The position numbers were made by a program, and so were the translations under genes. A stretch of DNA of 64,000 nt from the NCBI GenBank assembly GCA_951406725.2, contig OX597831.1, positions 20,460,001 to 20,524,000 on the forward strand, read 5' to 3'. The DNA is from Octopus vulgaris. Taxonomy: Eukaryota. The first letter of the stretch is position 1. Each line of letters opens with the position of its first letter. Positions 702-61,023 of the stretch are shown here, in pieces. Under the pieces are notes generated by a model. It ran no database searches. It was not told the DNA's origin and saw only the letters and a program-made list of their open reading frames with translations.

Positions 702-742
702 CTGCGGACCAGTTTCTGGGTTATTGCACCTTATCAGCACAG
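702..742 (-). ncRNA. Degenerate type I hammerhead ribozyme-like motif
   Basis: Minus strand reads CTGTG-CTGATAA-GGTGCAATAACCCA-GAAAC-TG-GTC-CGCAG. Stem I is 5 bp; core has G8>A; stem II is weak. Confidence 0.5.
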
Positions 743-899
743 AGTAGCTGCTTGGCTAGGTGGTGTTGCTGAATTCCCATCCGAAAATATATAATTTTCA
801 AAGTGATATTTTTCAAGCACAGTATTGTCCTAACCAAATGTTAACCACCCTGGTGTTACTTGGTCGGCATTTAACAAGGTGTTGAATTGCGCAGCTATT

Positions 900-1430
900 C
901 GTGCATGACATTCACCAAATGATCCAGTAGCCTTGGACTCTATCTGGTCCCGAGCCCTTCTATTTGCTCATTTTTTTACAACGAGGCGCTGTTTCAGTTC
1001 CTCCATTACCAGTTTCAGGCCCTTTCTTTCAATATTATACTTCCTTTTCAGTGCCCTGTATTTTTGTTCGCTTTTAAGCACCCTTTTCTCTTTCCGGTCT
1101 TTCGAGAGCATATCTAACTCTGCCTGGATTCTTCTTTTCCACCACGGATCTTTTCTTTTGTCACTCCCTTTATATTTCTTTTTTTTGAATCAACATCCAC
1201 GTTTTCTGCTACAACAGTACTTGCTGCATTGATCAAATTATTTGTTTTTGTGATGTTGTTTGTTCTGATGTATTTCAGAATTTCATTGACATTTTTCGTT
1301 TCTTGGTTCAATCTCCATCAATCAACCTTTTAAAGGTTGCAAATAATGTCGCTATCGTTCTCCTATAGTCTTGCCTTTATTCTGTCGTAGATTGCATTTG
1401 TTCATCTGACATATCGCTTTTAGTTTTATC
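900..1430 (-). mobile_element. Decayed R4/Dong-like non-LTR retrotransposon ORF, N-terminal region
   Basis: Frameshifted peptides ETKNVNEILKYIRTNNITKTNNLINAAS, DPWWKRRIQAELDML and RKYNIERKGLKLVMEELKQRLV resemble the PWWKRR/LKQR region upstream of RT in R4/Dong elements. Confidence 0.7.
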
Positions 1431-1589
1431 TTCTTTATCTATCTATCTATCTATCTATCTATCTATCTATCTATCTATCTATCTATCTATCTATCTATCT
1501 ATCTATCTATCTATCTATCTATCTATCTATCTATCTATCCATCTATCTATCTATCTATCTATCTATCTATCTATCTATTCTTTTTTTTC

Positions 1590-1800
1590 TTTTACTTGTT
1601 TCAGTCATTTTCATTGTGGCCATACTGGAGCACCGCCTTGAAGGGTTTTTAGTTGAACAAATCGACCCCAGGACTTATTGTTTTAAAGTCTAGTACTTGT
1701 TCCATCGTTCTCTTTTGCTGAATCGCTAAGTTACGAGGACGTGAACACACCAACACTGGTTGTCAAGCAATTATGGGTGGACAGACGCAAATACAAAGAC
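1590..1800 (-). mobile_element. SINE family A, 3' half (5' half probably at 2925-3078)
   Basis: Matches the family A tail GGCGGTGCTCCAG...ATGACTGAAACAAGTAAAA on the minus strand. Confidence 0.8.
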
Positions 1801-1891
1801 ACACACACACACACGCACACACACACACACACGCACACACACACACACACACGCACACACACACACACACACGCACACACACACACAGAGA

Positions 1892-2640
1892 CAGAGTGAT
1901 TACAAAATCTTTCCCTGATAATAAACTTTTATTGAACAAAAACTTTTCAAGACACAAAAGCAGTGTTTGGTGTTCTTATAGCGTCTGCTTAGAAGTTTTT
2001 ATACACATAAAATGAAATTCAGTAAATTTCAATATGGACCCCTTATATGGCTCGGAGCACAGCTAACCGATATTCAGTTTCACGCCATGTATTCTGAAGC
2101 ATATCGTTTTTACTGATGAGATTGTTTCAGCAATCCTTGCCTTTAGAAACTGAATATAGTCAACAGGTGTACTGTATACGTTGTCCTTCAGATACCCACC
2201 ACCAAAATAAGTCTAGCGGGGTAATGTCTGGTGAACGTGGAGGCCATGGTGTTGGTCCATCTCGTCCAATTCACCTCTTTGGAAAGGTTTTATTCAAAAA
2301 TTTGACAGACACATATGCCCCAGTGTGGAGGAGTCCCATGTTGTTGGAAAATTATGAATGGTTGAAATTCCTTCAGCTGGGCTACCGCATAATGTTCCAG
2401 CACGTGCTGGTAAAATGTTTGCTGAAATGGATTCAGCAAAAAAGAAAGGTCCAATGACCCCGCCATGAATTAGGCAACACCAAACATTAACCTTACGGCT
2501 GTCTCTTTTGTGCGCTACAACGTATGGGTTCTTCGATCCCTATATCCTTACATTTGTTTGTTAAATTTTCCTGATATGTGAAAAGCTGCTTCGTCAGAAA
2601 ATGCAACAAGTTGGTTGAAGATAGTCATTGTTCGTATCGA
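1892..2640 (-). mobile_element. Tc1/mariner-superfamily transposase relic with probable right end
   Basis: Frameshifted minus-strand motifs FSDEAAFHISGK, WIGRDGPTPWPPRSPDITPLD and GYLKDNVY. Confidence 0.85.
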
Positions 2641-57056: not shown

Positions 57057-57367
57057 ATAATAATAATAATAATAATAATAATAATGATAATAATAATAAT
57101 AATAATAATACTAATAATAATAATAAAAATAATAATAATAACAATAACAATAACAATAATAATAACAATAACAATAACAATAATAATAACAATAACAATA
57201 ACAATAATAATAACAATAACAATAATAATAACAATAACAATAATAATAACAATAATGATAATAATAATAATAATAATAATAATAATAATAATAATGATGA
57301 TGATGATGATGATGATGATGATGATGATGGTGATGATGATGATGATGATGATGATTATGATGATGAT

Positions 57368-57635
57368 TGTTTAGACAGCATCCTAGGAGACCATGCCTAA
57401 AAAGGAAATGCAAAAGATTGTGCTGACAAGTACTGCCTACATCCTTAGAAAAACCCTTTCAATTTAAATGTTTGAGTTGTATTATATGGATATGTTTATC
57501 TACTGCCTTCGACATTTACCCTTGTCGAGATTTCAGTTATATTTCCACACATGTTTTAACCTTCACTTGCCCTAGGGTGCTGGGTGTGTCGTGGCAAGTG
57601 ATTGCATCAAACATGCAGATTAAAAGTAAGCATAC
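57368..57635 (+). mobile_element. R4/Dong-like LINE extreme 3' end
   Basis: EMQKIVLTSTAYILRKTLSI* plus UTR, followed by (TAA)n. Confidence 0.75.
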
Positions 57636-58218
57636 TAATAATAATAATAATAATAAAAATAATAATAATGATGATGATGATGATCATCATGATCATGATC
57701 ATGATCATGATCATGATCATCATGATCATGATGATGGTGATGATGATGATGATGAGGATGATGATGACGACGATGATGATGACGATGATGATAATGCTAC
57801 TTTCACTTCTGGTTCAAAATACATATGGCGTCTTGAATTCTGAATTCATATGGGGAATTAAAACATATTGAAATGAAAGAGAGAGAGAGAGAGAGAGAGA
57901 GAGAGAGAGAGAGAGAGAGAGAGAGAGAGCAACAGAGACAAATAGATTTCAACGTATAACTAAGAGTTCTTATTTGTATACAGTTTAATAGAGATATAAA
58001 TACAACAGGTTGAGTTCGTCCATTCGTTTCATAAACCTTAATGTTTTAAAACTTTCGAAAATCTGGTTCTTAACCTAGGAGGGCACTTGATATGCACTTG
58101 GGAATAAAATGAAACACAGAAACTACAGAATAGTTAATTATTTCTAACTACCTACTCGATTCACTACATCGCACCGACAAGTTTCTTGCTTGCGTGAATT
58201 CGTTTAGGCGCCAAAGAT

Positions 58219-59250
58219 ATGCATGCATACATACATACATACATACATACATACATACATACATACATACATACATACATACATACATACATACATACAT
58301 GCATGCATGCATGCATACATACATACATACATACATGCATACATACATACATACATACATACATACATAAATACATACATACAAACATACATACATACAT
58401 ACATACATGCATACATACATACATACATACATAGATACATACATACATACATACATGCATAAAGGTATACATGCAAGCATACCAACATGCACACACATAT
58501 GCACAGGCACACACATCTGTGTATGTATGTTAAACTATACACACACACTCATGATACTGTTTGTGCTTCTGGGTGCCCGTATACGTTTGATTAAAATTCA
58601 GATATGTAAATGTAAGATCCAAATTTGTCTTAACTATCTATCAAGCAATCTGTCTATCACACAATTCATCAGAGCATCTATCCATCCATCCATCCATCCA
58701 TCCATCCATCCATCCATCCATCCATCCATCCATCCTTCCATCTATCCATCCATCCGTCCATCCATCCATCAATTCATCCGTCCATCCGTCCATCCATCCA
58801 TCCATCCATTCATCCATCCTTCCATCCATTCATCTATCCGTCCATCCATCCATCCATCCATCCATCCATCCATCAATCAATCCATCCGTCCATTCGTCCA
58901 TCCGTCCATCCATCCATCCATCCATCCATCCGTCCATCCTTCCATCTATCCATCCATCCGTCCATTCATCTATCCATCAGACCATCCATCCATCTATTCA
59001 TCTATCCATCACACCATCCATCCATCCGTCCTTCCATCCATCCATCCATCCATCCATCCATCCATCCATCCATCCATCCATCCATCCATCCATCCATCCA
59101 TCCGTCCGTCCATCCATCCGTCTGTCCATCCATCCATCCATCCATCCTCCATCCATCCCTCCATCCATCCATCCGTCCGTCCATCCATCCATCCATCCAT
59201 CCATCCATCCATCCATCCATCCATCCATCCATCCATCCATCCATCCATCT
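58219..59250. repeat. (CATA)n and (CATC)n tetranucleotide microsatellites
   Basis: Direct reading; explains ORF 58407-59372. Confidence 0.93.
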
Positions 59251-60947
59251 ATTCGTGTAACTGTCTGTCTGCCTACCAACCTGCTTACCTATTTGTCTGT
59301 TTGTCTGTCTGTCTGCCTACCTATCTCTCTGTGTGTCTGTCTGTCTGTCTGTTTACCTGCGCAGGTGTCTGACAGCTTGTGTGTTTCTTTGTACTCATAT
59401 ATGCCAGTTTGTGTGTAGATGTGACAGTGCAAATCTCTATCTATCAATGCGTATATGTGTGTCTGAGTGTGTGTGTGCGCGCGTGTATGGGTGTGTATGT
59501 GGGCATACGCAGCATTATGTGTTTCTTGTATACAGCACTGAGTGGGTATGTAGCATCATGGCCGTAAATGTGTGTGTAGTAGTACTGTGGTCGTTCCTTT
59601 GTGTGTGTGTGTGTGTGTGTGTGTGTGTGTGTGTGTATGTGTGTAGTATTGTGACTGTGTGTATGTGCATGTAGCACTGCGATTATGTATGTGTGGGTGT
59701 AGCTCCCTGTGTGTATATGTGACACTGTGCGAGTGTGTGTACGTGTATATAGCTCTGTGAGTGCATCTGTAGCATTTGTAGCACTGGAATGTGTGTACGT
59801 ATGTGGCACTGTGAATGCAAGTGTGTATGTGTATGTATAGAACTGTGAGTGTATGTATCACTGTGTGTGTATGTGTGTGTGTGTCACTGATGTAATGTAC
59901 TGACTGTAACGAATCTCTAATACCTGTGATGAGGTATAAAAATAGAAGGATGGTGAGATAAGGACACAGAATTTAGCGAAGTGCATTCCCCTCCAAGCGT
60001 CATACATGGATTTTTAATAGCACCATCTACATATGTGTATGTATATACACACATACATGCACATACACAGACATACAGAGATACATATATATATATATAC
60101 ATATGTTGGAACTTGTGTATGTATATATATGTGTATATTACTTTCTATATATATTTAGATATTTACAGTACTATAAATATGTATTATTATATGTATATGT
60201 TTATTAAATATGAATCAAAATGTATATATATGTATATGTATATGTATACATACAGATATATATATATATATATATATATATATATATATATATATATATA
60301 TATATATGTATATATGTATGTATGTATATATGTGTGCATGTGCGTGTGCTCGTGTGTGTGTATGTATATAATATATGTCTATATATCTCTCTTTTCATAT
60401 GTATATATAATATATATATTCAATATATATGTGCATATACATACATACATACACACACATACACACACACATATATATGTGTATATACACATTGACACAC
60501 ACACACACGCGCTAACACATACTCTCATACACACAAACATACACACACGCAAACGCACATACACCCTCACCACACACAGTTATATTCGGCGGACATCCAT
60601 CGCAAGGCAAATTTCAATAGCTAATTAGATTTTAAAAATTAAACATATACATATTTATCTATGTATATATATATGTATATTTACATTTATATATGTGCAT
60701 ATATTTAAAATTACATAAATATTATACAACATATATATATATATATATATATATATATATATATATATATATATATATATATATATATATATATATATAT
60801 ATATATATATATATATATATATATATATATATATATATATATATATATATATATTAGAGGAAAATGACAACAAAACCCAAGGCAGGACGAGTTTCTCAGT
60901 ATCTCAAGTCATTTATAATAATCTAATTAGGGTTAGGTGAATTTGAA

Positions 60948-61023
60948 GTCTTACAGCTGTTTCTTGGATAACTTAAGTGATAAGCTAGCATGTCCGTACA
61001 CTGGGCATTCCATCATCAGAGAC
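60948..61023 (-). ncRNA. Type I hammerhead motif (intact core) in a (TA)n-adjacent insert
   Basis: GTCT-CTGATGA-TGGA...TCCAA-GAAAC-AGCT-GTA-AGAC; palindromic stem III ACAGCTGT. Confidence 0.75.

Follow-up and report, generated by a model that had tools for sequence, protein, structure and literature searches.

Does an octopus DNA segment rich in TA microsatellites harbour genuine hammerhead ribozymes, and if so, which elements carry them and do they bear signs of selection for cleavage? This question is raised by a 64,000-nt stretch of the Octopus vulgaris genome (assembly GCA_951406725.2, contig OX597831.1, positions 20,460,001 to 20,524,000 of the forward strand), here called the window, in which a sequence-only reading had listed 22 hammerhead-like motifs. 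We find that the motifs are real. They are minimal type I hammerhead motifs within short non-coding repeats, likely 3'-end (pseudo-long terminal repeat, pLTR) pieces of Penelope-like elements (PLEs) together with non-autonomous derivatives, which would have been copied into TA microsatellites. Elements of this kind are already known; their density and a family with U instead of A at core position 6 (U6) set the locus above routine.

Hammerhead motifs and chance expectation

Sites are named by the position of their core in the window, and the excess over chance was judged with a scored hammerhead descriptor. More than 20 motifs of type I topology had been claimed, and a type I hammerhead-like parse was obtained at all 22 coordinates, on one strand each (10 on the plus and 12 on the minus strand). 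The parses of sites 45690 and 46681 were made partly by eye. Both core boxes are intact in exactly eight of the 22 sites (4638, 25087, 26915, 30163, 35492, 40580, 45690 and 61019), where about eight had been announced, and site 25805 additionally carries the U3-A8 covariant core, as published. The density in this window agrees with the earlier estimate of about one motif per 3 kb and corresponds to one intact core per 7-8 kb.

A shuffled control and an Rfam scan had been proposed as checks. The controls for the scored descriptor were 100 block-wise dinucleotide shuffles, in which microsatellites were kept, and the reversed window. At a score of ≥ 9, six sites were found in the window against a shuffle mean of 0.04 (maximum 1) and none in the reversed window. 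At ≥ 8, the counts were 10 against 0.34 (maximum 2) and 2, and at ≥ 7 they were 14 against 1.16 (maximum 5) and 5, in excess of both controls each time. A simpler descriptor gave three sites against 0.01 when no core mismatch was allowed, six against 0.65 with one mismatch and 20 against 9.1 with two (30 shuffles). The sites with a score of ≥ 8, all of them listed before, are 4638, 6685, 15283, 25087, 25805, 26915, 30163, 35492, 40580 and 46187. Five further members of the largest family, family A, were recognized with blastn at 76-92% identity (17969, 34418, 35837, 37383 and 40161), and 15 of the 22 sites are therefore firmly supported. Sites 61019, 12368, 15753, 45690 and 46681 stay below score 8, though they are convincing by eye, whereas 737 and, weakest of all, 16910 (intact in its 3' half only) are doubtful.

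Chance matches in low-complexity, palindrome-rich DNA would be the simplest alternative. Loose thresholds favour it: weak scores do not discriminate, because at ≥ 5 the window holds 24 sites, the shuffles 11.9 on average (maximum 20) and the reversed window 18, and sites 16910 and 737 do not stand up. The excess at score 8 argues against it, as does a test on half sites consisting of GAAA and a perfect palindrome: a matching first box, together with stem I, lies upstream of 10 out of 32 of them, compared with 0 out of 12 in the reversed window. When a general linear hammerhead pattern was searched in viral contigs, both stems were present in none of 120 matches; the pattern of families A and B gave no match there. 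Chance is thus ruled out for the 15 supported sites and could account for the two weakest, and as an explanation of the whole set it is hardly tenable. Low-score matches at 36550, 36850, 37713, 41904/41924 and others were rejected, as their stems were absent or they were parts of pieces resembling short interspersed elements (SINEs) or mariner elements.

Motif architecture, insertion sites and proposed origin

Eight of the 22 sites are interrelated by blastn. Family A comprises six of them (170-190 nt, 76-92% alike) and family B two (80%), and the two families align with each other over the motif and a downstream box. No mutual match at E 1e-4 was found among the remaining 14 sites, and about 16 families are therefore represented. 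The earlier description as many unrelated short elements holds for the number of families, but not for these eight sites. Families A and B share a short conserved box, located some 25-40 nt 3' of the point of cleavage (e.g. at 6730-6737), that duplicates the 5' arm of stem II and can base-pair either with the 3' arm of this stem or with a motif in the 5' flank. It may serve as an off-switch or act as a distal helix I.

In 14 of the 22 sites, stem III is a perfect palindrome; in six it is one substitution away from this, and in two it is neither. Seven different palindromes, 4, 6 or 8 nt long, occur among the perfect ones. Eight stem III segments were folded with RNAfold: none forms a hairpin alone and all form a self-duplex, with energies of -1.7 to -11.2 kcal/mol for seven and -14.4 kcal/mol for site 35492. 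About half of the sites have an extra unpaired purine ahead of a G-C closing pair. This combination of an extra nucleotide located after position 9 and before position 10.1 with G10.1-C11.1 is seen in seven of the eight family A and B copies and in 25087, 12368 and 46681 (the last by eye). Sites 35492 and 15753 have the G-C closing pair without the extra base, and stem II is closed by A-U or U-A in about seven other sites. Helix I comprises 4 bp in families A and B and 5-6 bp in some of the singletons.

Such features are known from PLE hammerheads. Dispersed single minimal hammerheads, numbering thousands per metazoan genome, falling into many families and tied to truncated PLEs, were published in 2014 (PMC4209133). 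The set described there shares with the present one the type I topology, the short helix I, the palindromic stem III, the U3-A8 covariant, and the many divergent families of mostly single, dispersed motifs from truncated elements; its extra nucleotide ahead of helix II and its G10.1-C11.1 pair recur in part of the present sites. It differs in its per-genome counts (about 2,000 in Schistosoma, 4,000 in the coelacanth and 9,000 in Xenopus), against one motif per 3 kb in our single window. The available parts of that report describe no family-wide U6 core, and no full PLE is tied to the present copies. The in vitro activity of PLE hammerheads, as dimers, was low and their cellular role was left open (PMC4209133).

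The insertion sites point in the same direction. A (TA)5+ tract lies within 250 nt on either side of 19 of the 22 sites, compared with a null expectation of 41.7% (p 2e-5), and on both sides of 10 of the 22 (null 10.1%), which bears out the claim that the motifs are mostly located in (TA)n. The exceptions are 25087 behind (AAC)n, 37383 in (TAGA)n and 26915, which stands 380 nt from a TA run. The element of site 25087 (25036-25210), which follows (AAC)11, suggests a family with a different microsatellite target; 37383 likewise has a setting other than TA. On the 3' side of the motifs, TA tracts have a median length of 50 nt (n = 15), against 26.5 nt for other tracts (n = 74; one-sided p 0.01), whereas those on the 5' side are not longer (median 28 nt, p 0.37). 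The proposal that the elements may expand TA tracts thus finds weak backing, from a post hoc test, on the 3' side and none on the 5' side, and the longer 3' tracts could reflect either expansion or the place at which the cut is made.

End repeats accompany four of the 22 sites. The element of site 26915 (26560..27232, plus strand; hammerhead 26909-26979, 8-nt palindrome) has 155-bp direct repeats at 26583-26738 and 27054-27209 with a period of 471 bp, a pLTR-like partial tandem with a single hammerhead. Inverted repeats occur in the other three, all on the minus strand. Those of site 25805 (25608..26046; hammerhead 25769-25811) measure 128 bp (25608-25735 and 25919-26046) in an element that abuts (AT)50. 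Site 35492 (35311..35640; hammerhead 35449-35498, 12-nt near-palindromic stem III, score 10) has inverted, diverged ends (69%), and site 40580 (40377..41009; hammerhead 40539-40586, score 8.5) an inverted repeat at 40459-40495 and 40973-41009. One additional element that had not been listed, 34739..35088 on the plus strand, is self-inverted and stands between TA runs; it holds a 3' half hammerhead with GAAA at 34906 and an 8-nt palindrome identical to that of 61019, and a first box was not found in it. The insertion of endonuclease-bearing PLEs is marked by direct pLTR repeats, by truncated copies that lie inverted at one end and by a microsatellite bias (PMC8557442). The Neptune, Naiad and related PLEs of that report resemble our elements in these respects, including the preference for (TA)n and the existence of non-autonomous derivatives. 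They differ in that Naiads have no canonical hammerheads and, in cephalopods, are mere remnants; therefore, a partner PLE of the window elements would belong to a hammerhead-bearing clade.

On the preferred reading, the reverse transcriptase-endonuclease of full PLEs elsewhere in the genome would act in trans on the short elements. Following the PLE literature, its GIY-YIG endonuclease would nick (TA)n, and reverse transcription of the element RNA would begin there at the RNA 3' end, often with an early stop or fold-back, so that short copies, ragged 5' ends and inverted ends would arise. The ribozyme would be active only in tandem source copies, because two motifs would have to pair through stem III: two palindromic stems III would pair, and the double hammerhead would cut the transcript into single units. 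Most solitary copies in the window would be inert and decaying. Non-autonomous families fit A and B, with their fixed short length and tens of thousands of contigs, and the 14 singletons may be truncated ends of full PLEs.

The elements could instead be monomers of non-LTR retrozymes that spread via circular RNAs from tandem arrays. Animal retrozymes are likewise short, non-coding and type I, with a proposed PLE origin (PMC7229834; bioRxiv 10.64898/2026.07.22.740005). The units here measure 170-470 nt, a permuted partial tandem is present at site 26915, an element end runs into its start in a few contigs, and the monomer share of retrozyme families spans 0 to 1 (bioRxiv 2026.07.22.740005). Retrozymes are, however, defined by tandem hammerhead units and canonical motifs (PMC7229834; bioRxiv 10.64898/2026.07.22.740005). 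A canonical motif has a 6-bp helix I and contacts between loops 1 and 2. At none of the 22 sites do two or more consecutive units of a tandem array each contain a hammerhead, judged by self-comparison and the 150 of 209 tandem-search rows listed. The minimal PLE-type motifs are set apart from retrozyme hammerheads (PMC7229834), and inverted ends are a PLE trait. We therefore regard this explanation as improbable. The sequence-only reading, which had proposed a diverse population of non-autonomous ribozyme retroelements in TA repeats, is borne out as far as the PLE-type minimal motifs, the many families and the TA bias are concerned, but not on its retrozyme side. Its motif list stands, the two weakest sites apart; it mentioned neither the inverted end repeats nor the family-wide change at position 6.

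Several observations weigh against a PLE origin or against functional hammerheads. An Rfam scan of the window at the gathering threshold recovers none of the 22 sites, and no hammerhead is among the 150 of 498 matches listed in an E-value scan, which is dominated by microsatellite matches to microRNA models. Monomer minimum-free-energy folds often favour other structures. It had been claimed that pairing is kept while the stems differ. In families A and B, 94.9% of stem cells are indeed paired, but covariation is weak, with a two-sided change in one of 10 pairs; between 33 and 274 of 500 shuffles equal the pairing and double-change measures, and 16 of 500 equal the covariation score. Most sites (18 of 22) are without end repeats. 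The TA bias is partly common to one SINE-like family (12 of 19 copies with a tract on either side, three of 19 on both), so it is not specific to hammerhead elements, though none of the 13 copies of another SINE-like family is near (TA)5+. Finally, Pfam detected no PLE reverse transcriptase or GIY-YIG domain in the nine of 328 window open reading frames (ORFs) searched, in line with the previous statement that none was recognised, and no PLE protein was recognised by eye in translations of several unique window regions. A match to a PPR protein upstream of 12368, obtained in a read-through search for an endonuclease tail, was rejected as chance, with no PLE protein there. The link to PLEs is inferred, because no PLE protein was found.

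The last two points also favour the alternative that families A and B are a hammerhead-bearing SINE moved by a long interspersed element (LINE), e.g. of the Dong-R4 type, with the TA setting derived from the LINE or from TA tails. Remnants that we take to be R4/Dong-like, and other LINE remnants, are indeed present in the window. Minimal palindromic hammerheads are nevertheless a published mark of PLEs, and self-comparison shows no 3' tail in common with a LINE. A family with a near-identical core in another animal adds to this. In metagenome contigs, 120 of about 250 pattern loci were examined (L001-L120); none matches the window by blastn, and a hammerhead core with stem I is present in 51 of the 120. 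All 51 have A6 and none is near (TA)5. Their core, in which position 4 is often C, is nearly that of family B, and they represent a different animal's family. In 13 of the 51 loci, an inverted hammerhead piece lies at most 200 nt upstream, which argues against a SINE. No PLE ORF was found at the metagenome loci by motif, nor by Pfam on 43 of 141 ORFs. On balance, LINE-driven mobility appears very improbable, and PLE-derived elements remain our preferred reading.

Core position 6 in family A

Family A is the commonest family in the window. None of its six copies has A at position 6: five have U and one (17969) has C. Both family B copies have A. In five of the six copies, the 3' end is fixed at a C-run that precedes TA or TAGA repeats; the 5' ends are ragged. 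On the PLE reading, family A would have spread with U6 in place of A6, probably still needing slow cleavage.

Variation in the family was studied in contigs of four sequencing runs with three organism labels, mapped at 80% likeness to 6628-6812, the region around the copy at site 6685 (6633..6806, plus strand; hammerhead 6679-6718, U6 at 6688, N7 at 6689, cleavage base at 6712). Placed contigs numbered 22,018 (X1), 20,206 (X3), 4,182 (X15) and 4,423 (X14), 50,829 in total. A variant was recorded when another letter reached ≥ 5%; summed depth does not equal copy number, and depth weights young subfamilies. No other letter reaches 5% at position 6. N7 is the sole motif position with three other letters (C, G and U), at 6-11% each in X1 and 18-42% in X15. 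At the cleavage base, C reaches up to 10% and U up to 32%, and G does not appear. All other motif variants at ≥ 5% fall on five CpG positions, of which G12 is one, or on the outer pair of stem I; none is seen at C3, U4, G5, G8, A9, A13, A14, A15.1 or U16.1.

Hammerheads follow the NUH rule, by which G is disfavoured at the cleavage base. Neutral decay would favour A to G at this base, and the absence of G fits the rule; we therefore read it as selection for cleavage. The pattern of variation suggests, on sequence grounds, that cleavage has been selected in source copies with U6, and the U6 core is predicted to still allow cleavage. Since a few contigs join the element end to its start over a short TA run, tandem copies that could form double hammerheads do exist.

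A competing explanation holds that all sites are passive relics. Family A would have inherited its hammerhead from a PLE end, lost it through U6 and propagated without any cutting, since the RNA 3' end is all that PLE proteins require. The lack of A6 in all six copies and stems I and III of just 4 bp speak for it. In published tests of A6C, the change at position 6 lowers activity, with slow cutting in Mg2+ (PMC3088659, PMC7151607); Naiad PLEs thrive without canonical hammerheads (PMC8557442). The mapping itself also calls for caution, as it favours reference-like contigs (no C4 variant is recorded, though C4 occurs in three of the six window copies), and only 49-68% of the G12 depth also spans N7 (X15, X1). 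Against passive relics, variation sits at two free positions, the cleavage base avoids G, the likeliest neutral change, and this base is A or U in all six window copies. We consider the passive scenario unlikely, if less so than the retrozyme and SINE explanations, and retain the reading that family A source copies were probably selected for cleavage.

A natural precedent for a change at position 6 is the A6C hammerhead of phage Bcep176, to which the copy with C6 (17969) corresponds. It differs in being a single phage motif with low activity in Mg2+ and better activity in Mn2+, whereas here U6 dominates a very high-copy animal family (PMC3088659, PMC7151607). Our literature search found no hammerheads reported for octopus and no natural U6 hammerhead family; it did not extend to the variants of Lunse, Weinberg and Breaker (RNA Biol 14:1499). 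Their study, going by its title, reportedly deals with small variant PLE hammerheads that cleave as dimers, and may cover a variant at position 6.

With its tens of thousands of distinct copies, family A amounts to a natural mutational scan, which speaks for cleavage being under selection in a non-coding derivative and for U being tolerated at A6. In hammerhead search descriptors, A6 is treated as invariant. If U6 is tolerated, standard searches would miss such families; Rfam recovered none of the 22 sites. Were the window typical of the 2.8-Gb genome, a one-window extrapolation would give about 350,000 intact cores, far above published counts. It is conceivable, though on present evidence rather doubtful, that an octopod genome exceeds all animal genomes seen so far in hammerhead density, with motif numbers in the hundreds of thousands if this window is representative, and that its largest family is a 170-190 nt non-autonomous PLE parasite with a working U6 core, selected across several related species, whose insertions lengthen the 3' TA tract. 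PLEs, annotated in 190 families, account for 6.83% of the genome of O. vulgaris (PMC13282606 supplement), and the parts available of the main text and supplement of this 2026 repeat annotation mention no hammerheads (PMC13282606). Some of the 893 recently active 'unclassified SINE' families of O. vulgaris may be ribozyme-bearing PLE derivatives.

Individual elements and surrounding sequence

The other family A copies are 17910..18091 (plus strand; hammerhead 17963-18002), 34292..34481 (minus; hammerhead 34385-34424 with C4 and U6, TA runs on both sides), 35715..35887 (minus; hammerhead 35804-35843, decayed with three first-box changes), 37250..37417 (minus; shorter at the 5' end, within (TAGA)n, hammerhead 37350-37389 with U6) and 40106..40288 (plus; shorter at the 5' end and flanked on both sides by TA runs, hammerhead 40155-40194 with C4 and U6). 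The family B copies are 30030..30240 (minus; hammerhead 30131-30169, A6, score 10) and 46129..46320 (plus; hammerhead 46181-46219, A6 and G12 to A, score 8), the latter followed by (TA)84.

Among the singletons, site 4638 (4632..4686, plus strand) has a 6-nt palindrome and a score of 11, in an element at about 4589-4830 between TA runs. Site 15283 (15277..15335, plus) has U4 to C, a long stem II and a score of 9, and its element (about 15204-15487) also lies between two TA runs. Site 25087 (25081..25128, plus; score 10) has the extra A and a 4-nt palindrome. The minimal motif of site 12368 (12336..12374, minus; score 6) has A6 to G, an extra A, the G-C closing pair, a 4-nt palindrome and 3-bp stems. 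Site 61019 (60946..61025, minus) combines an 8-nt palindrome with a 49-nt stem II region, and its element ends at (AT)62. The stem II region of site 45690 (45582..45696, minus) measures 83 nt, beyond the loop limit of the descriptor, and the site is 13 nt from (TA)14. It adjoins a TA-flanked, near-perfect palindrome of 198 bp (45732-45929), a candidate for the inverted end of a different PLE piece.

Site 46681 (46675..46760, plus) is decayed, with an intact first box, a long stem II and A14 to U, and reaches a score of 6 via another parse. Site 15753 (15717..15759, minus) is decayed as well (U4 to C, G12 to A), with a 5-bp stem II, a 6-nt palindrome and a poor stem I. Of the half motif at site 16910 (16864..16916, minus), the GAAA box, an 8-nt palindrome and the cleavage site are kept and the first box is lost. 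The decayed hammerhead-like sequence of site 737 (701..743, minus) has G8 to A, a stem III one change off a palindrome and a score below 5; it stands after what is presumably an R4/Dong-like reverse transcriptase fragment.

The window has 35% G+C, consists for 29% of short tandem repeats, and contains abundant SINE-like, mariner-like and LINE-like pieces. The reverse transcriptase and endonuclease remnants that we assign to R4/Dong-like elements are located at 720-1430 and 38508-38990, both on the minus strand; the assignment is based on motifs, with no Pfam or homolog match, and the second remnant is interrupted by (TTA)n tracts. An ORF at 30817-31158 (minus), upstream of the family B copy at 30163, presumably encodes a LINE endonuclease tail of the restriction-like endonuclease type. 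It is accompanied by a repeat (30362-30638 and 30686-30969), and contigs of 24 sequencing runs with six organism labels (all contigs) cover 30040-31340. Mariner-like transposase remnants and a CR1/L2-type reverse transcriptase piece (weak RVT_1 match) occur at about 2100-2700, 8500-9100 and 41300-41900 (minus) and at 5540-6040 (plus). The SINE-like family that avoids TA runs is arranged in tandem units of 183-186 bp, two to three copies each, at 9597-9972, 24057-24425, 42239-42604 and 43287-43845, and its 5' part yields several GAAA-palindrome half sites without a first box.

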